Source of the DNA: Gammaproteobacteria bacterium
GTDB lineage: Bacteria > Pseudomonadota > Gammaproteobacteria > Eutrophobiales > Eutrophobiaceae
Direction: 5' to 3'
DNA: 64,000 nucleotides
NCBI GenBank assembly: GCA_030829985.1
Contig: JAURNW010000021.1
Coordinates: 11,611-75,610, forward strand
Below are positions 5,284 to 26,029 of this stretch, one piece after another. The position numbers and the translations under genes were made by a program. The notes below the pieces were generated by a model, which did not search any database, had not been told where the DNA came from, and saw only the letters and a program-made list of their open reading frames with translations. The stretch's first letter is position 1, and each line of letters opens with the position of its first letter.

Positions 5284-6342
5284 CTAGACTGTCGCGTACA
5301 TCTTCCCTGGATTTAATATGCCGTGTGGGTCAAAGGCGTTTTTTAATCCTTTATGTAATGACAATAATCCATCTGTTAAAGGTTGAAACACTTCCTGTTG
5401 ACGATCAGAACCTTTAAACAACATCGCACTGCCGCCTGCGACTGAAGCCATATTAAATATTTCTTCCGCAGAACGGTCAGAATTAAGCCAATACAACCCC
5501 CCGCCCCAATCTATTAAACACGAATCATCAGCCACAGCCACGACAGATGTTAAGGGAACAGATAATCGCCAAACATTATTGTCCGAATTAAAAATGGACG
5601 ATTTGTAATCACGTAATTCATCCCAGAATAACTGCGCTTGTTCTAATACATCCATGCCGATAGCCTCACTTGAAGTCTTGACCACCTTTTCATCTCCCGA
5701 TAAACGGATAAATAACGCTTCACCATCATAACAGGATGCAGATATAGGTATGTTACCAGTGGACAATTCAAGCATCTTCGCCAGGGCTTTTTCGGCTGAT
5801 AATAATTGATGACAGGTCATCTCAAATTCAGGTATTGGCATAACCTTGAGTGAAATGTCCAAAATTACACCTAGTGTTCCATATGCACCTGTCATCAATC
5901 GCGATAGATCATAACCAGCAACATTCTTCATTACCTGTCCACCAAATGTCAGCTCTTTGCCCAAGCCATTTATACAATGGATTCCTAAAACATAATCACG
6001 CACCGAACCTGTATAAGGTCGGCGTGGCCCGCTCAAGCCTGTCGCTACAACACCACCTATTGTGGTGCTGGCATTAATCTGAGGCGGGTCAAAAGCTAAC
6101 ATTTGTCCGTGTTCGGTCAGGGTGTTATTGATCTCACTCAGCGTTGTACCGGATCTAGCTGTAATATACAGTTCTGTCGGCTCATAACTTATTACACCGC
6201 TATAAGAGGACATCTCCAAAGATGTTCCAGTGCTGTTTCTACCTAGAAAAGCTTTGCTATCACCACCCACAATCTTCAATGGCTCACGCTGCTCAATGGC
6301 ATTCGCTAATTGGTCCTGGATGATTTTTATTTTTTCTTGCAT
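5284..6342 (-). CDS. glcE: Glycolate oxidase FAD-binding subunit GlcE
   Basis: 352 aa with an FAD-binding PCMH-type domain pattern. It sits between glcD and glcF. Confidence 0.85.
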   Translation of the reverse strand: MQEKIKIIQDQLANAIEQREPLKIVGGDSKAFLGRNSTGTSLEMSSYSGVISYEPTELYITARSGTTLSEINNTLTEHGQMLAFDPPQINASTTIGGVVATGLSGPRRPYTGSVRDYVLGIHCINGLGKELTFGGQVMKNVAGYDLSRLMTGAYGTLGVILDISLKVMPIPEFEMTCHQLLSAEKALAKMLELSTGNIPISASCYDGEALFIRLSGDEKVVKTSSEAIGMDVLEQAQLFWDELRDYKSSIFNSDNNVWRLSVPLTSVVAVADDSCLIDWGGGLYWLNSDRSAEEIFNMASVAGGSAMLFKGSDRQQEVFQPLTDGLLSLHKGLKNAFDPHGILNPGKMYATV

Positions 6343-6421
6343 TGAACAGTCATCTGATTAATTTAGTTTTAAAGTCATGAATGAAAAAGCTGATTTAAAG
6401 TAATATCAGAAATAAAACATC

Positions 6422-7864
6422 TCAATAACGTTCCAGCTCGGGAAACTTATCCTTGCCTGCGTGTACATGCATCGCTCCAAACTCTGCACATCGGTTTAAA
6501 GTAGGCACCGCCTTGCCCGGGTTTAGCAAACCTTTTTTATCGAACGCTGCTTTTACAGCATGAAACTGTTCCAGTTCATCATCGCTAAACTGGATACACA
6601 TCTCATTTATTTTTTCTATACCGACCCCGTGCTCACCCGTTATGGTACCGCCCATTTCAATACAGAGTTTGAGTATGTCGCTACCAAATGCTTCAGTGCG
6701 TTTTAACTCTCCCGGAATAGCAATATCATATAAAATCAAGGGATGTAAATTTCCATCTCCGGCATGAAAGACATTGATTACATCTAGTTTATATTTTTTA
6801 GATAAATCATTTATACCAGACAATACCTGTGCGATATGTTTTCTTGGGATGGTTCCATCCATACAATAGTAATCCGGTGCAACTCGACCCGCAGCCGGGA
6901 AAGCCGCTTTTCTACCTGCCCAGAATAGATCTGATTCAGCATCATTCTGCGCAACACGTACTTCTGTTGCACCGAATCGAGTAAGCAATTGTTCGACAGC
7001 ATTTAAGCCTGTTTCTACTTCATCCTGAGTACCATCTAATTCACACAATAAGATCGCTTCTGCATCGGTGGGATAACCGGCGTGAACAAAATCTTCAACC
7101 GCACGAACACCTCCCTTATCCATCATTTCCAGACCGGCAGGAATAATGCCCTCAGCGATAACACCCGCAACGGCATTACCGGCTTTCTCAACGTCATCAA
7201 AAGCAGCAAGCAAGACTCTGCTGAAGGGTGGTTTCGGAACCAGTTTTACCGTGACTTCGACTATCACCGCCAACATCCCTTCAGAACCCGTCAATAGGGC
7301 AAGCAGATCGTATCCGGCTGAATCGAAAGCATGGCTACCAACCGTAATTAATTCACCCTCAATAGTGACGAGTTTCAATTGCATAATATTGTGCACTGTA
7401 AGGCCATATTTCAAACAATGAACGCCACCAGAATTTTCAGCTACATTTCCACCAATAGTGCAGGCGATCTGGGATGACGGATCAGGGGCATAATATAAAC
7501 CATGTGATTTCACGGCATCGGAGATAGCGAGATTACGAACACCTGGTTGAACCCGTGCCGTTCGCTGTTCCGGATCAATTTCGATTATCTTGTTAAATTT
7601 AGCCAGAATCAGCAATACTCCTTCTTCGTGGGGCATCGCACCGCCAGATAGGCCGGTACCTGCACCTCTGGCGACAACCGGTATATCGTGAGAATGGCAA
7701 TACGATAATATGGCTTGTACCTGCTCCACAGTATCCGGCAAAACTACACAGCCCGGCATTACCCGATGAGCAGATAGCGCATCACATTCATAAACGCGCC
7801 GCGATTCTTCAGATAGCAATACAGCCCCTGCTGGGAGAATCTCTGTTAATTTACTAAAATTCAT
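6422..7864 (-). CDS. glcD: Glycolate oxidase subunit GlcD (FAD-linked oxidase)
   Basis: 480 aa. It has the FAD-binding motif ARGAGTGLSGGA and an FAD-linked oxidase C-terminal domain. It is the first gene of the glcDEF order. Confidence 0.9.
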   Translation of the reverse strand: MNFSKLTEILPAGAVLLSEESRRVYECDALSAHRVMPGCVVLPDTVEQVQAILSYCHSHDIPVVARGAGTGLSGGAMPHEEGVLLILAKFNKIIEIDPEQRTARVQPGVRNLAISDAVKSHGLYYAPDPSSQIACTIGGNVAENSGGVHCLKYGLTVHNIMQLKLVTIEGELITVGSHAFDSAGYDLLALLTGSEGMLAVIVEVTVKLVPKPPFSRVLLAAFDDVEKAGNAVAGVIAEGIIPAGLEMMDKGGVRAVEDFVHAGYPTDAEAILLCELDGTQDEVETGLNAVEQLLTRFGATEVRVAQNDAESDLFWAGRKAAFPAAGRVAPDYYCMDGTIPRKHIAQVLSGINDLSKKYKLDVINVFHAGDGNLHPLILYDIAIPGELKRTEAFGSDILKLCIEMGGTITGEHGVGIEKINEMCIQFSDDELEQFHAVKAAFDKKGLLNPGKAVPTLNRCAEFGAMHVHAGKDKFPELERY

Positions 7865-19478: not shown

Positions 19479-19590
19479 TTATAAATTAGAGACACAAACG
19501 AATTAATTAGCAGAAAGTATGAAATACCAGCGTTTTTATCGCATTTTCGAAAATTATATCAATCAACTTTTCTAAAAGAATATTATAGCG

Positions 19591-21060
19591 ATGAGTAATA
19601 CGAACCTGATAAAACAGAGACCTGTAAAGATTGGGTTGCAAACGACACTAAATATTCTGTTACCTTACTTGGTTGAAAAACTACTAGAACAACTTAAAAG
19701 TATCTGGTTTATCGTCGCTTACCTTTATTTTTTCCAAATCGTTATTCTAGGCTTACCCGTTATTTATGCGACGATGGTCACTGCAGGTATCGCCATTGTT
19801 GCAATTGGTCTGATGTTTTTTATGGAAGGTTTGCGTCTCGGTTTAATGCCTCTTGGAGAAACAATCGGAACACACCTACCACGAAAAACTAAGCTACCTA
19901 TTATTCTATTCTTTGCTTTTCTTATGGGTATTGGCGCCACATTGGCAGAACCAGCAATTGCTGTACTTAAAGCAGCGGGAAGTGGCGTAAAACCAAATCA
20001 GGCACCACTGTTATATAGTTTGCTCAACGACTTCGCACTACAACTTGTCGCAGCCATAGGTATTGGTGTTGGCATTGCCGTAGCGCTAGGAGTATTGCGG
20101 TTTTTCTATAACTGGTCACTGAAGATACTCATCATTCCACTTGTTGTCACTTTGACAGGATTGACCCTATGGTCATTTAATAATGAGATACTGAGTCCGA
20201 TCATTGGTCTGGCCTGGGACTCTGGTGCGGTAACTACTGGTCCTGTCACCGTGCCCTTGGTGCTGGCTCTCGGGATAGGTGTATGTCGCATCGTGGGAAA
20301 TGGAGATATGACGACGGATGGCTTTGGCATTGTTACATTGGCGTCTTTATTTCCAATATTGGCTGTATTAATACTCGGGAACATACACTATTTGCAGGGT
20401 GACTACTATGGCGCACCTAACTATATAGGCCAACTAGAATCCTCTAAAGTGGTGGATACTACACTGCAAGAAACGAGTAAGCCTATTTTAAAGTCTGAGA
20501 TCTTTTCCGAAGCTGAATTTGCTCATTACCTTACAACGAATGAAATACCCGAAGAAACAGAGATCCAATATAAAGGCGGTTCCGTTAATTTGGTGGATGG
20601 ACAAATCGTTCATGATAATGCATCCATTATCATCGTTAAAAAAATCAGTCAGGTGAGACCCTATGATGAGAACAACTGGGATCCTCATAGTAACTTGATA
20701 TCGGACTTGCAAGAAACCGCAACTGCTGCTCTAAAAGCGATACTTCCTCTTTGCCTGTTTTTGTTTCTAACGCTGAAATTTATATTACGAGAAAGATTGG
20801 CAGACTTACAAATTGTATTAATAGGTATCATATTCGCTGTCCTTGGTATGGCGATGTTTGGCTTGGGTATTAACCTTGGTCTAACACCACTAGGAACTCA
20901 ACTCGGTAGTAATATTCCATCGGTGTTTGCCTCAGTTACTCCATGGGGAATGCTCGGACAACAAGGACCTCTAATAAGTGATGGTATTGGCGGCAGGTTA
21001 ATTGCCATTTTGTTTGGTTTTTTCTTGGCTATGGTGCCACACTTGCTGAACCAGCCCTAA
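19591..21060 (+). CDS. DUF1538-family membrane protein: complete first DUF1538 unit, cytoplasmic linker and N-terminal part of a second unit; truncated by an apparent frameshift
   Basis: 489 aa and polytopic. It carries the family signature AWDSGAVTTGPVTVPLVLALGIG. The second unit begins around residue 380 and the frame ends shortly after a T6 run (21018-21023). Confidence 0.75.
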   Translation: MSNTNLIKQRPVKIGLQTTLNILLPYLVEKLLEQLKSIWFIVAYLYFFQIVILGLPVIYATMVTAGIAIVAIGLMFFMEGLRLGLMPLGETIGTHLPRKTKLPIILFFAFLMGIGATLAEPAIAVLKAAGSGVKPNQAPLLYSLLNDFALQLVAAIGIGVGIAVALGVLRFFYNWSLKILIIPLVVTLTGLTLWSFNNEILSPIIGLAWDSGAVTTGPVTVPLVLALGIGVCRIVGNGDMTTDGFGIVTLASLFPILAVLILGNIHYLQGDYYGAPNYIGQLESSKVVDTTLQETSKPILKSEIFSEAEFAHYLTTNEIPEETEIQYKGGSVNLVDGQIVHDNASIIIVKKISQVRPYDENNWDPHSNLISDLQETATAALKAILPLCLFLFLTLKFILRERLADLQIVLIGIIFAVLGMAMFGLGINLGLTPLGTQLGSNIPSVFASVTPWGMLGQQGPLISDGIGGRLIAILFGFFLAMVPHLLNQP

Positions 21061-21092
21061 ATGCGCTTGGCGAAACTGTTGAGAAAATCACG

Positions 21093-21479
21093 GTGGGGGC
21101 ATTCCGTGAATCGTTACTTATGCAATCAGTTGCTTTGGGCGTTGCTATAGGCATAGGCACTGGTGTATGTAAGATTGCATTCAATATCCCACTCGTATAT
21201 TTATTACTACCGCCATATATGTTGTTATGTGTTCTTACCTGGATATCATCAGAGGAATTCGTTAACTTTGGCTGGGACAGTGCCGGTGTCACAACAGGAC
21301 CAATTACCGTACCACTTGTACTCGCAATGGGACTCGGCATCGGCGCAAACGTGCCAGGTGTAAGTGATGGCTTTGGTGTTTTAGCATTGGCTTCGGTTGG
21401 CCCAATCATAACTGTATTAACTGTTGGGCTTTTGGTTGCACGCGCTCAGTCCAAAATAGATAACGAAGACGAGTCATGA
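21093..21479 (+). CDS. C-terminal part of the second DUF1538 unit (continuation of the upstream ORF in another frame)
   Basis: 128 aa carrying the second signature GWDSAGVTTGPITVPLVLAMGLGIG. The same frame is open back to 20982 and reads LGYGATLAEPALNALGE from 21024, which matches GIGATLAEPAIAVLKAAG of the first unit. Confidence 0.75.
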   Translation: MGAFRESLLMQSVALGVAIGIGTGVCKIAFNIPLVYLLLPPYMLLCVLTWISSEEFVNFGWDSAGVTTGPITVPLVLAMGLGIGANVPGVSDGFGVLALASVGPIITVLTVGLLVARAQSKIDNEDES

Positions 21480-22654
21480 TCATTACTCGTCACAATATGT
21501 CTGTTGTCACTATTATTATCGGACGACATCGCGCTAAAAAAGTATTGCAAGATTTGTTTGCGGACGGTATTCACAGTGCATTATTGACAAGTGCGCGTGG
21601 CACACTAATGCAAGATAAATGGTACCAAAGCATATTGTCGATGATTAGACCCGAGTTAGCAGTAATACAAATGATAGTGCCAGATCCGTTTGTTGACCGT
21701 ATTATGGAACGTGCCGCCAGGCTTGCACAACTACATCGTTCAGGCGCTGGCTCTATATTCAGTAAACCTTGTGTGGATTTACATGTTAAAGGCACATTTC
21801 CTCTCTGGCCTATAGATCAAGAGGAATTGCCTGAAGATGATGCATCCAATTATCTTTGTGAAAACCTAACTGCAATCTACTTAATCAGCCAGGGTGAACG
21901 AACCGAGGCAGTTTGTCGCGCAGCAATGAATGCAGGTTCCCACGGACCAATCATCCTGTTCTCAGAAGGTCATGGTCTACGTGATCGTCTAGGCTGGTTA
22001 CGTATTACAAATAAACCCACAAAAGAAATAGTTTCAGTTTTGGTTGAAAATGTTGACGCCGATCTGGTATTTGCTGCTATGGCTGAAGTCGGGCAAGTGG
22101 AACACGTTGGGCGTGGTCTTATCTATCGAATGTCCGTACAAAAGGGACTAATCAATATTGACAGTGTCTACTCTAAAACTCGTCATGCCGCCAGTATTCA
22201 ACAAATCATTCGTGCGATTGATGATATTAAAGGCAATAAAGATTGGCGAGATCAAGATTCAATCGCCATGCATGGAGGTGCAACAGCTGGGTTAGGATTT
22301 ATGTCTAAACTGTCTTCTGAATCAGTATGCAAGCCTCGAACGTTAATTTCAATTTTGGTCTACCGCGATAATTCACATGAAATTTCACGACAAATAATAA
22401 ATATGGGCGCGCCAGGTGCTAACATAAATTATTTCCAGTTTTATACTCAAGCTGATAGCACACAACATCAGGAATTCGCGCAAATAAGTATTATAGTTGA
22501 TGAACCCAGTGCTATTGAATTGGAAAAACGTATATTAAATGAAGTAGAACAGGATTTAATGATCTTTACGCAACCAGTTACACATTCCATCTCTTATGAA
22601 TTACCTATGCAAGATAGTACAACCAGGATGTATCGAGGCGTACCAATTAGTTAG
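21476..22654 (+). CDS. Three-domain PII-like (GlnB-fold) protein, uncharacterised
   Basis: 392 aa. It contains three tandem segments of about 80-95 aa with a beta-alpha-beta, loop, beta-alpha-beta pattern like GlnB/GlnK (for example ELAVIQMIVPDPFVDRIMERAARLAQLHRSGAGSIF versus GlnB [35 protein letters not shown]). Its start overlaps the DUF1538 stop (ATGA). Confidence 0.6.
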   Translation: MIITRHNMSVVTIIIGRHRAKKVLQDLFADGIHSALLTSARGTLMQDKWYQSILSMIRPELAVIQMIVPDPFVDRIMERAARLAQLHRSGAGSIFSKPCVDLHVKGTFPLWPIDQEELPEDDASNYLCENLTAIYLISQGERTEAVCRAAMNAGSHGPIILFSEGHGLRDRLGWLRITNKPTKEIVSVLVENVDADLVFAAMAEVGQVEHVGRGLIYRMSVQKGLINIDSVYSKTRHAASIQQIIRAIDDIKGNKDWRDQDSIAMHGGATAGLGFMSKLSSESVCKPRTLISILVYRDNSHEISRQIINMGAPGANINYFQFYTQADSTQHQEFAQISIIVDEPSAIELEKRILNEVEQDLMIFTQPVTHSISYELPMQDSTTRMYRGVPIS

Positions 22655-22743: not shown

Positions 22744-23097
22744 TTATTTTTTAGTCGTTTTTTTCCAAATAGATTCAGCCGAAACCTGATCAATTATCTT
22801 TTTATCTGGTTTAATCCCGGAGTTCTTGTCTGCCTCCTCTTTTTCGATCAGTTCTGCTTTCAATACTGCTTTTTTGACCCGAATTATATTACCATTAACC
22901 TCTTTACCATTAAGGGCTTTCATCGCTGCTTTAGCTTCGCCTATCCTCGGCATCTCGATAAATCCAAAACCTTTTGAGTCACCTGTCTTTTCATCAATAA
23001 CCAAAGAGCAAGACTGAATCCTTCCAAAAGTATCGAACATATTTTTTATTTCTTGCTCTGTCGTTGTACGAGAGAGATTTCGGATTAATAATTTCAT
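22744..23097 (-). CDS. RRM-type RNA-binding protein
   Basis: It has RNP2 (LLIRNL) and RNP1 (KGFGFIEM) motifs and a Lys-rich C-terminal tail. I chose the ATG at 23097; the ORF-track start at 23139 adds 14 non-conserved residues. Confidence 0.8.
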   Translation of the reverse strand: MKLLIRNLSRTTTEQEIKNMFDTFGRIQSCSLVIDEKTGDSKGFGFIEMPRIGEAKAAMKALNGKEVNGNIIRVKKAVLKAELIEKEEADKNSGIKPDKKIIDQVSAESIWKKTTKK

Positions 23098-23539
23098 AGT
23101 ATTTAAATTATAGAACAGGCAATGAAGTTGCGTAAACAACAGTTAGTTTATCTCATTTTCAGGTGACTTGTTTTATGATTCCAGGATAACTAATCAAAAA
23201 GTATTACCCCAAAGATTTATTAGTTAAACTGGTAACGATAAAAGCGGGTAGACTATCTTCATAAATCAGCTTAATAAAAGATAAAAGAATTATTTATTGC
23301 TCAACAAGTATGCACTAAATAGTCTGTTAGCAGGTTCAATATTCAAAACAATTTCTATTAATCCTTGAATTAACAGGCTTTTAACAATAATATTTTTTGC
23401 TGTTAAATATCTTTTTTCCATAATTTGATCAAATTCAGGTCTAATTAAGGTAAATAATCTACCCTAACCGGTATAAATTTAATAAAAAGCTAATTGATTC
23501 GCCTATAATATCGCGCATTTTAGCTGAGGAACTGATTTA

Positions 23540-24385
23540 GTGAAATTTAGCGCAAGTCAATTCAGAGAATGGGATCGCAAGGCGATTACCCTGCTCGGTA
23601 TGTCGGGAGTGGGGAAAACTCGTCTCGCCTGCCTTTTGCGTAAATCACACTGGTTTCATTATTCCGGAGATTACCGGATTGGGACACGTTATCTAAATGA
23701 ATCAATCCTCGATAACATCAAGCAAAAAGCGATGCAGATCCCATTGCTAAAACATTTGTTATTGTCAGATTCGATCAATATTGATAATAATATCTCAATC
23801 GATAACCTGAAGGCTGTATCTAGCTTTCTCGGGCAATTGGGTGATCCTGAAAAAGGTGGTTTAGGCCTGAGAGAATTTAAACGTAGACAGGCATTGCATT
23901 ACAAAGCAGAAGTAGAGGCAATGCTGGATGTGCCCAAGTTTATAAAACGTTCTCATGATGTCTATGGATACGAACACTTTATCAATGATGCTGGTGGTAG
24001 CCTATGCGAACTCGATAAAGATTCTGTCTATGATACGTTAGCCGAGCACACTCTGATTATTTACATCAAGGCAACTAAGCATGATGAACTAGAATTAATC
24101 AAACGCGCTGAACTTGAGCCAAAACCGCTTTATTATCGTGAAGATTTTCTTGATCAACAGATTGCTGAATATCTTGAAGAAAAAAAATTAGGTTATGCTG
24201 CATTGATCGAGCCGGATGACTTTGTGCGTTGGGTGTTTTCAAAACTGTTCTACAATCGTATACCACGTTATCAGACTATTGCTGATAAATATGGCTATAC
24301 CATTAGTACGAATGAAATTTCCAGGGTTAACTCTGAAAAAGATTTTCTTAATCTGATTGAAAGTACTCTTGAACAGAATAATTAA
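23540..24385 (+). CDS. P-loop NTPase with shikimate-kinase-like (NMP-kinase fold) layout, function unknown
   Basis: 281 aa with a GTG start. It has Walker A (LLGMSGVGKT). The later segment NDAGGSLCEL...LIIYIKATKHDELELIKRAELEPKPLY parallels AroK ATGGGSV...[24 protein letters not shown]. It lies 11 nt upstream of metA. Confidence 0.55.
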   Translation: MKFSASQFREWDRKAITLLGMSGVGKTRLACLLRKSHWFHYSGDYRIGTRYLNESILDNIKQKAMQIPLLKHLLLSDSINIDNNISIDNLKAVSSFLGQLGDPEKGGLGLREFKRRQALHYKAEVEAMLDVPKFIKRSHDVYGYEHFINDAGGSLCELDKDSVYDTLAEHTLIIYIKATKHDELELIKRAELEPKPLYYREDFLDQQIAEYLEEKKLGYAALIEPDDFVRWVFSKLFYNRIPRYQTIADKYGYTISTNEISRVNSEKDFLNLIESTLEQNN

Positions 24386-24396
24386 GAGAAAGAATT

Positions 24397-25470
24397 ATGC
24401 CATTAGTTTCCAATAGCGCTTTACCAAGTTTTGAAAGATTGAAACAGGACGGTGAAACAATTATCACTGCTGAACAGGCCTTGCATCAGGATATCCGCGA
24501 GTTACATATTGGTTTGCTAAATATGATGCCAGATGCTGCACTGGAAGCAACTGAGCGTCAATTTTTTAGACTGGTTGGCGAAAGTAACCAGATCGCGCAA
24601 TTTTACTTACACCCATTCACATTGGATAAGCTGGAGAGATGTAAAGAAGCAAAAACGCATATTGAAAACTATTATCAGACGTTTGATCAAATCAAGCAGC
24701 AAGGCCTTGATGCATTAATCATTACAGGTGCCAACATGGTTGGTAGTGAACTGGCGGATCAACCCTTCTGGGAGCCGTTAAGCGAAGTACTTGCCTGGGC
24801 ATATGATAATGTAACGTCAACATTATGCTCATGTTTGACGACACATGCTGTCCTGCAATTTCGCTATAATCAAAAACGCAAGCGGCTGCCCGGTGGCAAA
24901 CGTTGGGGCGTTTACCCGCATCGTGTTGTTGACAGAAAACACCCACTGGTTGCCGGCGTAAATACCCGTTTTGATGTGCCACACTCAAGGTTTAATGAAA
25001 TCTACCCCGAACAGTTTGAACAGGCTGAACTGAAAGTGCTTGTTGTCAGTGAAGATAATGATGTTCACCTTGCTGTGAGTGAAGACGGTTTTCGTCTTGT
25101 TTTTTTTCAGGGTCATCCAGAATATGATTTAATCAGTTTAATGAAGGAATATAAGCGTGAGATTGGTCGATATATTGACGGTAAAATAGACCAGTATCCG
25201 AACTTTCCCGAGAATTATTTTTCATTAAAATGTCAGGCCATTCTTGAGGAGTATCAGGACCATCTGGATTGGGCTTTAAAATCAGAAGCCGAACCACCCG
25301 AATTTCCGGAAGATTTGATTATCCCTTTCCTTGATAATACCTGGCATGATACAGCTGAGGCTGTGATCAATAACTGGATTGGCAAGGTTTACCAAATCAC
25401 TAACACTGATAGGCATCTACCGTTTAATGAGTCAATAAACCCTGATGATCCATTGGGTCTCAAAAAATAA
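24397..25470 (+). CDS. metA: Homoserine O-acyltransferase, MetA family (succinyl versus acetyl specificity not resolved)
   Basis: 357 aa with the MetA signature (LHIGLLNMMPDAALEATERQF, GHPEYD). Confidence 0.9.
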   Translation: MPLVSNSALPSFERLKQDGETIITAEQALHQDIRELHIGLLNMMPDAALEATERQFFRLVGESNQIAQFYLHPFTLDKLERCKEAKTHIENYYQTFDQIKQQGLDALIITGANMVGSELADQPFWEPLSEVLAWAYDNVTSTLCSCLTTHAVLQFRYNQKRKRLPGGKRWGVYPHRVVDRKHPLVAGVNTRFDVPHSRFNEIYPEQFEQAELKVLVVSEDNDVHLAVSEDGFRLVFFQGHPEYDLISLMKEYKREIGRYIDGKIDQYPNFPENYFSLKCQAILEEYQDHLDWALKSEAEPPEFPEDLIIPFLDNTWHDTAEAVINNWIGKVYQITNTDRHLPFNESINPDDPLGLKK

Positions 25471-25504: not shown

Positions 25505-26029
25505 ATGGATAAACAAAAACACCTGAAATATCTGGCTTCATTATTATTGAGCTTAATCTCAATAACTGCTTGCGATAGTGACGTTAATGACTCGACAAAT
25601 ACCTTGCCAATAAGTGCTGCCGTGTCAGTCCAGGAAAAGACAAAGGAACAAGCCTGGCCTGTGATAGAAAACAAGAGTTATTTATTCGATGTCTCAAATC
25701 ATTCAATTGAAGAACTTGAAGCCTTATTAATCAGAGCTGAAGAAGTTTCTCAAACTCATCCTGCCGATTTTGATGATCTTGAAATAGTGATGATTCTTCA
25801 TGGACCGGATATAGACTGGTTTACTCAACAGAATTATGAACACAATCAAAAACTGATCGATCTGGCAGCAAGGCTCGATGCCTATGATGTAATTGATATG
25901 AAGGTCTGTGAAGCCACTATGCAAAAAAGAGGTGTGATACAAGAAGATCTACCAGGTTTTATCGAATCAGTTCCCTATGCTCCGACTGAAATCAAGTACC
26001 GCTTACAAAATGATTATATCAATCTTTAA
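25505..26029 (+). CDS. DsrE/DsrF-like family protein with lipoprotein signal peptide
   Basis: 174 aa with a lipobox (LISITAC). The C-terminal 100 aa resemble the DsrE-like (COG1416-type) pattern: VMILHGPDIDWF...MKVCEATMQKRG...ESVPYAPTEI. Confidence 0.5.
   Translation: MDKQKHLKYLASLLLSLISITACDSDVNDSTNTLPISAAVSVQEKTKEQAWPVIENKSYLFDVSNHSIEELEALLIRAEEVSQTHPADFDDLEIVMILHGPDIDWFTQQNYEHNQKLIDLAARLDAYDVIDMKVCEATMQKRGVIQEDLPGFIESVPYAPTEIKYRLQNDYINL

Follow-up and report, generated by a model that had tools for sequence, protein, structure and literature searches.

Few signal integrators in biology are as widespread as the PII proteins, and every well-understood pairing of a PII protein with a channel or secondary carrier that we know of (GlnK-AmtB, SbtB-SbtA) places a symmetric trimer on a trimeric target. 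GlnK is a homotrimer of 112-amino-acid (aa) subunits on the trimeric AmtB channel; in the second pair, a homotrimeric SbtB, which binds adenine nucleotides, acts on SbtA, a carrier that is trimeric as well and has 5+5 inverted repeats. The heteromeric PII-like nitrogenase regulators NifI1/NifI2 are a precedent for adjacent paralogues working as one regulator. In the DUF1538 family of membrane proteins, UmpAB of Halomonas zhaodongensis is a heterodimeric Na+(Li+,K+)/H+ antiporter, as found in vesicle assays and from its ability to complement E. coli KNabc, and the cloned fragment as described, with a truncated ORF1, an MFS gene and umpAB, was active without a PII gene (PMC5484666). Here we describe a DUF1538 gene followed by the gene of a triple PII-like protein in a stretch of 64,000 nucleotides (nt) from a gammaproteobacterial contig (JAURNW010000021.1, positions 11,611 to 75,610), hereafter the window. 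An initial annotation, made from the letters of this stretch, had named UmpAB as the sole DUF1538 pair with an assigned function, and the searchable literature agrees: UmpAB is the only functionally studied member found in it, and neither a DUF1538-PII association nor a single-chain triple PII was found there. Literature matches to Borrelia BB0017 and to Methanococcus are unrelated to the module.

The two genes form a self-contained, translationally coupled and co-evolving module, in which an ion transporter would be gated by a single-chain PII pseudo-trimer. We give this overall reading, with effector binding and 1:1 docking included, a probability of roughly 0.55, and a PII-gated transporter, as first proposed for this DNA, remains the best reading of the locus. 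It is carried by the domain content of the two proteins, by their conservation, by the coupling of their genes and by the co-variation of their architectures across genomes. The features of the module are given below in window coordinates. The assemblies named are L001 (Thiotrichaceae UBA973, 85% identical) and L082, L083 and L084, which are other assemblies of essentially the same organism (99.93-99.98% identity to the window).

19591-21479, forward strand: gene of the fused membrane protein with two DUF1538 repeats, 629 aa if intact; orthologues in L001, L082 and L084.
19711-20382, forward strand: DUF1538 repeat 1 (aa 41-264), UmpA-like, covering PF07556 model positions 1-210 of 211.
20383-20715, forward strand: inserted soluble linker domain (aa ~265-375), specific to this subfamily; it begins with a variable, acidic part, and AlphaFold2 (AF2) predicts one helix and four beta strands in the rest.
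20716-21479, forward strand: DUF1538 repeat 2 (aa ~376-629), UmpB-like (PF07556 and the NCBIfam UmpB model), containing a frame break.
21018-21023, forward strand: homopolymer of six T (T6), site of a 1-nt deletion; seven T (T7) in all other assemblies compared.
21476-21479, forward strand: ATGA stop/start overlap, indicating translational coupling.
21476-22654, forward strand: gene of the 392-aa triple PII-like protein (listing of open reading frames (ORFs), Pfam, AF2, Foldseek, hhalign).
21497-21790, forward strand: PII-like domain D1 (aa 8-105), from PF00543 (26.4 bits), AF2 and conservation.
21866-22156, forward strand: PII-like domain D2 (aa 131-227), the best-conserved unit (mean column identity 0.73).
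21968-22024, forward strand: D2 T-loop (aa 165-183, GHGLRDRLGWLRITNKPTK), the most conserved part of the protein (column identity 0.85).
22157-22336, forward strand: helical insert between D2 and D3 (aa 228-287), with AF2 helices at 241-252, 256-260 and 274-279.
22337-22594, forward strand: PII-like domain D3 (aa 288-373), from AF2, hhalign (D2-D3 95.5%) and a profile match to 2o66.

The pairing of the two genes is conserved wherever it could be followed. Relatives of the 392-aa protein occur in 153 species genomes in a scan of 185,579, including a cultured Sinimarinibacterium and a Verrucomicrobiales isolate. Eighty loci were kept for the analysis of context, one of them cut by a contig end, and in all 79 testable loci the gene immediately before it, in the same orientation, is a full-length DUF1538 ORF with both repeats. 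The stop codon of this ORF overlaps the start of the PII-like gene in 49 of 78 loci (by 4 nt in 32, by 1 nt in 17), and at the loci without overlap most gaps are of 11 nt or less. The ATGA overlap had already been pointed out and is confirmed in the sequence, while conserved adjacency, on which the initial annotation had said its proposal could fail, was found throughout. This arrangement supports translational coupling of the two genes.

The association reaches well beyond this subfamily. Two samples of DUF1538 loci were drawn, 120 loci through a DNA pattern encoding D-x3-VTTGP-x-TVP and another 106 through a GC-biased form of that pattern; both samples are ascertained via that one motif and were returned in a fixed order rich in metagenome-assembled genomes (MAGs) from the gut, and the counts refer to loci with at least 1.3 kb of downstream DNA (80 and 73, respectively). 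Both repeats lie in one ORF in 72/80 and 71/73 of these loci, split pairs being rare in both samples. Therefore, the earlier statement that DUF1538 genes usually occur as two adjacent genes of about 240 aa does not hold here, and the fusion of the membrane halves, taken at first as a special condensation, is the norm in the sampled loci. Linker and partner co-vary: a short linker (26-51 aa) goes with two downstream PII-like domains (63 and 65 loci in the respective samples, 128/130 together), whereas a long linker (64-190 aa) is followed by one large PII-like ORF of ~370-410 aa in 14/14 loci, some of these stop-to-stop frames extending to 584 aa. The two domains of the common form, which is the usual partner, are encoded in one gene of ~230 aa or in two genes. 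Of about 150 other DUF1538 loci, all but ~7 have either a pair of PII-like domains or a single large PII-like ORF downstream. The family ranges over gut Clostridia, Bacteroidales, methanogen-related archaea and marine Proteobacteria, and its common form is annotated in Vescimonas fastidiosa as KI236_RS10550 and KI236_RS10555. From the sequence comparison, the window's module belongs to a subfamily that appears to have gained an extracytoplasmic insert and a third PII domain. A true umpAB locus was not among the sampled loci, no member reaching the UmpA/UmpB cut-offs given below and the GC-biased scan returning mostly gut MAGs.

The assignment of the membrane protein to DUF1538 is clear. PF07556 matches it twice, with 215.9 bits on 19591-21057 and 149.3 bits on 21021-21476 (gathering score 22.6 bits), and the signature peptides AWDSGAVTTGPVTVPLVLALGIG (20212-20280) and GWDSAGVTTGPITVPLVLAMGLGIG (21270-21344) are both present, so the two copies seen originally are upheld by the profile search that had been suggested. 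GATLAEPA occurs in both repeats, that of repeat 2 being in the shifted frame; it is accompanied by WDSGAVTTGPVTVP (20212-20280) in repeat 1 and by GWDSAGVTTGPITVP (21270-21344) in repeat 2. The NCBIfam UmpA model gives 217.6 bits over aa 27-265 and the UmpB model 166.1 bits over aa 378-612 (NF041627 and NF041628, with curated equivalog cut-offs of 490 bits for UmpA and 500 bits for UmpB). Intact relatives, nearly all of 607-655 aa, are 58-72% identical across Gammaproteobacteria, Verrucomicrobiota (including a cultured Cerasicoccus) and Bacteroidota, far above the 33-60% identity of the partner protein. A set of 93 diverse DUF1538 proteins with two repeats shows E120/P121, E487/P488, D563 and a basic residue at each of positions 170 and 528 without exception, and the A-E-P and D-x-G-x-V-T-T-G-P motifs (E120/P121, E487/P488; D210 and D563 with TTGP) are kept in 92-93 of the 93; the conservation of D..TTGP in repeat 1 carries no weight, because this motif was in the search pattern.

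The AF2 model of the membrane protein (predicted local distance difference test, pLDDT, 78.3; predicted template modelling score, pTM, 0.77) builds each repeat from about ten helices, which are interrupted at the AEP and TTGP motifs, and seven transmembrane segments are predicted for each repeat. No solved relative was found by sequence, where the search returned chance LHC hits only, or by fold (best E 0.11, TM-score below 0.2). The content of lysine plus arginine (K+R) per loop is reversed between repeats 1 and 2 in five of six homologous loops (0.3 vs 3.8, 3.0 vs 1.2, 0.6 vs 2.5, 2.6 vs 1.0 and 1.6 vs 0.2), both ends of the protein are strongly basic and the repeats meet at an acidic junction. 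By the positive-inside rule, this bias favours a 7+7 inverted-repeat topology that leaves both termini in the cytoplasm and places the central linker on the outside.

The ~110-aa linker domain of the window contrasts with the 26-51 aa found elsewhere in DUF1538 proteins and lies within the 64-211 aa of its subfamily. AF2 places a helix at 307-316 and strands at 323-350, and neither Pfam nor PDB holds a relative of this domain. The soluble linker described at first is thus present, with the correction that the charge distribution makes it probably extracytoplasmic; on the inverted-repeat reading it would therefore not be the docking site for the partner. Repeat 2 has a second subfamily-specific insertion, ASVTPWGMLGQQGPLISDGIGG (aa 447-468, ~20929-20994, forward strand), in the loop between helices 2 and 3. 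Most other DUF1538 proteins lack this insertion (alignment occupancy 0.17-0.28), and its predicted position is on the outside, like that of the linker domain. Longer inserts between the repeats (121-211 aa) were observed in Opitutia and related loci (L131, 5496-8000; L188, 5667-7733). The 835-aa stop-to-stop frame of L131 also picks up a PII-like match, cut by the end of the locus, which hints at a possible fusion of membrane and PII parts or at a missed stop.

The partner is a soluble protein with three PII-like units, as had been proposed, on the agreement of the ORF, AF2, Foldseek, hhalign and PF00543. The Pfam P-II model (PF00543, gathering score 25 bits) gives 41.2 bits for the whole 392-aa protein, 26.4 for D1, 17.2 for D2 and no hit for D3. 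The AF2 model (pLDDT 79.5, pTM 0.78) contains three beta-alpha-beta-beta-alpha-beta domains, and hhalign gives homology probabilities of 97.4% for D1-D2, 95.5% for D2-D3 and 88.4% for D1-D3. By Foldseek, each domain matches GlnK/GlnB structures with probability 1.0 and TM-scores of 0.6-0.77 (target-normalised), the AmtB-GlnK complex 2ns1 among them (also probability 1.0). The profile of the 392-aa family matches many PII chains in PDB, and Arabidopsis PII 2o66 aligns over the D3 region (E 4.7e-4). The protein is a single chain and not a homotrimer subunit of ~112 aa: its relatives have 345-413 aa (73 clusters from MAGs and metagenomes, named 'hypothetical protein' or 'P-II family nitrogen regulator'). 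An exhaustive profile search retrieved 240 representatives at E <= 1e-30 and 1426 at E <= 1e-3, representatives being clusters at 50% identity. In L001, the PII-like ORF (6001-7182) ends at 374 aa, with homology to the window protein running to residue 392, which probably reflects a frameshift or early stop near its 3' end in that assembly.

The three domains are unequal. D1 has a conserved T-loop, ARGTLxRDRWYQ, and a GAGxxF B-loop (mean column identity 0.60). The D2 T-loop has the consensus GxGLRDRLGWLRIT, with G165, G167, L168, R169, L172, G173, L175 and T178 invariant, and has a low pLDDT, as expected for a flexible loop; its conservation makes it a candidate contact or plug element. D3 is divergent, with a short T-loop and without the glycine-rich B-loop (mean column identity 0.48). 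In the helical insert, the motif RHAAxMQQIIxAIDxLKGxxxWRDQ is nearly invariant (A239, Q243, A247, D249, W257 and R258 strictly so), and neither Pfam nor PDB holds a relative. In nearly all other DUF1538 modules, one PII unit is recognised by the D2 profile (30-100 bits), the second unit being divergent; in the two-gene systems of Proteobacteria this D2-like unit is the proximal gene, and in those of Clostridia it is the distal gene or the C-terminal domain. The protein, in which the initial annotation saw three PII protomers fused, is not simply a homotrimer joined into one chain, D2 being the unit common to other modules and D1 and D3 having diverged. Of the residues of the ATP/ADP/2-oxoglutarate site, G87 and G89 alone are kept, in D1 and D2; the position of GlnB K58 is A or E, that of K90 is S or L, and R101 and R103 are gone. 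D1 and D2 have a GxG-phi-phi-(F/Y) B-loop, and D2 also has an [ED]K[ED] motif on strand 3. By these alignments the canonical ATP/2-oxoglutarate site is not conserved, and because its ligand residues are missing, a GlnK-like or SbtB-like effector cannot be assumed.

In the window, the membrane gene is broken. The ORF listing and translation divide it into a 489-aa ORF (19591-21060), ended by TAA at 21058-21060, and an out-of-frame rest (21021-21479); the remainder of DUF1538 copy 2 is read in the other frame, which stays open from 20982 until a TGA at 21477-21479. The one continuous chain assumed at first is thus not encoded as such, the break having gone unnoticed. Both frames join at the T6 run (21018-21023), where one added T, or a base read twice, restores the 629-aa protein with the peptide ...LFGFFLGYGATLAEPA..., and this repair yields LFGFFLGYGATLAEPALNALGE, the counterpart of the GATLAEPA motif of copy 1. 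L001 has GGTTTTTTTCTTGG, T7 and an intact 629-aa ORF; L082, L083 and L084 all have T7, and the 629-aa gene is called in L082 and L084. In distant relatives, the FGFFLGYGAT peptide is in frame throughout and the T run varies from 2 to 7. The site formally matches an X_XXY_YYZ slippery heptamer, and a programmed -1 frameshift at T_TTT_TTC is ruled out by the T7 of the same-species assemblies and by the relatives with 2-7 T, always in frame. From these comparisons, the break is most likely a private 1-nt deletion caused by a sequencing or assembly error, and it is foreign to the biology of the DUF1538/PII family. In L006 (4291-6177), a related DUF1538 gene is split into 448 and 180 aa at a position other than that of the window break, so that frame breaks in this long hydrophobic gene are recurrent in MAG assemblies.

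Putting these elements together, the membrane partner would have about 14 transmembrane helices, an UmpA-like repeat followed by an UmpB-like one, and both ends in the cytoplasm. Each repeat would bring an A-E-P and an (F/W)-D-S-G-x-V-T-T-G-P motif to a helix break, and the four buried acidic residues together with the glycine/threonine-rich breaks could form an ion-binding centre. By analogy with UmpAB, the cargo would most likely be monovalent cations moved against protons; an ion-coupled carrier is the best-supported mechanism, with cation/proton antiport as the sole experimental precedent. The soluble partner would act as a cytoplasmic pseudo-trimeric regulator that binds a small cytoplasmic effector. 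Its docking, 1:1 on the cytoplasmic face of the transporter and mainly through the D2 T-loop (GLRDRLGWLRIT), would switch transport off or on, with the small molecule controlling the association. Because the umpAB clone as described was active without a PII gene, the partner is likely to be regulatory rather than essential. Transport, physical binding, gating, the 1:1 stoichiometry, the cargo and the effector are what we infer for the module.

More tentatively, and with rather more doubt than confidence, this reading can be sharpened: the partner may be a covalent hetero-trimer with specialised protomers that regulates a 7+7 inverted-repeat carrier 1:1 and asymmetrically, through an effector other than ATP, ADP or 2-oxoglutarate, which would be a new mode of PII signalling, and the pair may be among the most widespread uncharacterised pairs of a PII protein and its target. 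In such a division of labour, D2 would make the contact or act as a plug, D1 would be an additional sensor or contact site, and D3 with the helical insert would be a scaffold, in a pair that would span Clostridia, Bacteroidales, Proteobacteria, Verrucomicrobiota, Spirochaetes and archaea.

Several observations weigh against a PII-gated ion transporter and must temper its interpretation. The UmpA and UmpB scores of the membrane protein are far under the equivalog cut-offs, and its substrate may for this reason differ from that of UmpAB; in the window's assembly its gene is interrupted. None of GlnB Q39, K58, K90, R101 and R103 is retained in any of D1-D3 in the alignment to E. coli GlnB and GlnK. 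The packing of the three domains as a PII-type pseudo-trimer, which the AF2 model implies, comes solely from its pTM of 0.78, and a pseudo-threefold partner would seem to mismatch a membrane protein of two internal, pseudo-twofold repeats, unlike the trimer-on-trimer arrangements of GlnK-AmtB and SbtB-SbtA. Transport, binding and ligand sensing by this pair are deduced rather than observed, and neither a riboswitch nor a conserved neighbour hints at function. Indeed, no Rfam family was found in or near the module in the window and no riboswitch upstream of 18 other DUF1538 loci, while promoter and terminator scans did not rise above shuffled background. There is no conserved third gene in the 79 family loci or in the 120 wider loci, the one recurrent neighbour being a generic ABC ATPase cluster (13 loci).

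The most serious rival, although an unlikely one, keeps the architecture and changes the cargo: the carrier could move another small solute (for example bicarbonate, ammonium or an organic ion), while the PII-like protein would report the corresponding metabolic state, as do SbtB for SbtA and GlnK for AmtB. The scores so far below the UmpA/UmpB cut-offs would fit this, as would the classical place of PII-type regulators on nitrogen and carbon transporters (GlnK-AmtB, SbtB-SbtA, PII-NrtBCD). For UmpAB, the evidence is one study of heterologous complementation, and one function need not fit a family spread over gut Clostridia, Bacteroidales, methanogen-related archaea and marine Proteobacteria. 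Nevertheless, about 300 loci show no linkage of the module to genes of nitrogen or carbon assimilation, many of the hosts are heterotrophs, which excludes inorganic carbon uptake as the general role, and the universally conserved buried Asp/Glu pairs fit cation/proton binding better than anion binding. It is quite improbable, in our view, that the PII-like protein is instead an obligatory structural or gating subunit, like the cytoplasmic rings of Trk/Ktr, serving as a scaffold that has lost ligand sensing. The loss of the canonical ligand-binding residues and the degenerate D3 are what such a subunit would show, and the near-absolute co-occurrence of the two genes with their translational coupling suggests a fixed stoichiometry; however, the activity of the umpAB fragment without a PII gene indicates that the membrane part works alone in that clade, and the GxG-phi-phi-F/Y B-loops of D1/D2 and the [ED]K[ED] motif are kept across all modules, which suggests a retained pocket. 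Very unlikely, finally, is a sensor pair in which the membrane protein detects an external solute or an ion gradient and the PII-like protein acts on other cytoplasmic targets. Several targets are usual for PII proteins, the subfamily has acquired a further domain, which is probably periplasmic, and a second loop insertion on the outside, and the membrane fold is common to no solved transporter. Against this stand the transport activity of UmpAB and the extremely conserved membrane core, with paired acidic motifs typical of ion-coupled carriers, and no output gene (kinase or transcription factor) is linked to the module.

A rival of another kind concerns the window's strain rather than the family. 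The module could be truly inactivated there, the change from T7 to T6 being a real mutation or an on/off variant from slipped-strand mispairing, which we consider improbable, though less so than the obligatory subunit. The break is present in the window sequence itself, a truncated 489-aa product identical to the window ORF is recorded from an ENA assembly (P0075), and three substitutions relative to L082 make the window a distinct strain or sample. However, those three substitutions across 21 kb are accompanied by two indels, both within T homopolymers, a typical signature of error, and three other assemblies have T7. Moreover, a 7-nt run is short for a phase-variable tract and is not kept in relatives, and the downstream portion of the membrane gene shows no further decay. 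The second homopolymer difference from L082 (T5 at window 19529-19533 against T4) lies in the 112-nt spacer between the fumarase and DUF1538 genes.

The surroundings of the module in the window were also inspected. A gene of an RNA-binding protein with a single RRM (22744-23139, reverse strand) is convergent with the PII-like gene; it also follows the module in L001, as it does not in more distant relatives. Further on, a 281-aa ORF (23540-24385, forward strand) has a Walker-A-like GMSGVGKT motif and no Pfam family (AAA_18 at 15.6 bits, below cut-off), and it ends 12 nt before a homoserine O-succinyltransferase-like gene (24397-25470). The pairing of these two genes is the same in L082-L084, where the first is called with 217 or 281 aa. 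A gene at 25505-26029 (forward strand) encodes a DsrE/DsrF-like protein (30.2 bits) with a lipoprotein-type N-terminus, LISITAC, unusual for the normally cytoplasmic DsrE/DsrF sulfur-relay fold.

The association between DUF1538 proteins and PII-like partners is strong, widespread and unstudied, a fused asymmetric PII is unusual, and the general idea extends a known paradigm, its functional side being inferential. It pairs a PII-type regulator with a membrane family that has one functional report and no solved structure, and the fused, individually diverged protomers could serve as a natural experiment on asymmetry and site specialisation in PII signalling. As nearly all sampled DUF1538 genes have PII-like partners, solving one module would provide annotations for thousands of genes from gut, marine and archaeal genomes, and it could reveal a new regulated route of ion homeostasis.

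Compared with UmpAB, the membrane protein of the window is likewise a PF07556 member, its N-terminal half matched by UmpA and its C-terminal half by UmpB in the same order, with seven transmembrane segments predicted per repeat, and both would act as a pair of homologous halves. In contrast to the two separate subunits of UmpAB, it is a single 629-aa chain in the orthologues, with an inserted domain of ~110 aa, and it has a dedicated triple-PII partner where none is described for UmpAB. The common modules of the Vescimonas fastidiosa type also have one ORF with two repeats, an overlapping PII-like gene, one PII unit of the D2 type and the same AEP and D-x-G-x-V-T-T-G-P motifs. The 64-211-aa linker, the loop insertion in repeat 2, the third PII-like domain and the helical insert set the window's subfamily apart from those modules, whose linkers have 26-51 aa and whose PII-like domains number two.

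NifI1/NifI2 have the side-by-side pattern of paralogues seen in the two-gene DUF1538 modules. They differ from the window's module in that the NifI target is a soluble enzyme, the NifI subunits are unfused and there is no close sequence relationship. PDB entry 9p1x, with two different P-II chains (which we take, as a guess, to be NifI1/I2), was considered as a DUF1538-associated PII and rejected, since such PII queries do not retrieve it; its chains match the 392-aa family profile weakly (E 0.0033 and 0.22). SbtB-SbtA shares with the module a non-canonical PII-like protein encoded directly downstream of a transporter, neither partner being similar in sequence or in fold beyond the PII fold. 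As in GlnK-AmtB, a PII-fold protein is encoded beside, and co-expressed with, a membrane transport protein, and a conserved arginine-containing T-loop is the likely contact element; unlike GlnK, the partner is one chain of three unequal domains and the membrane protein is pseudo-twofold, the residues binding ATP, ADP and 2-oxoglutarate are not kept and there is no link to nitrogen genes. The module resembles GlnK-AmtB and SbtB-SbtA in outline, as a proposed PII-type regulator on a membrane transporter, and is a member of neither system.

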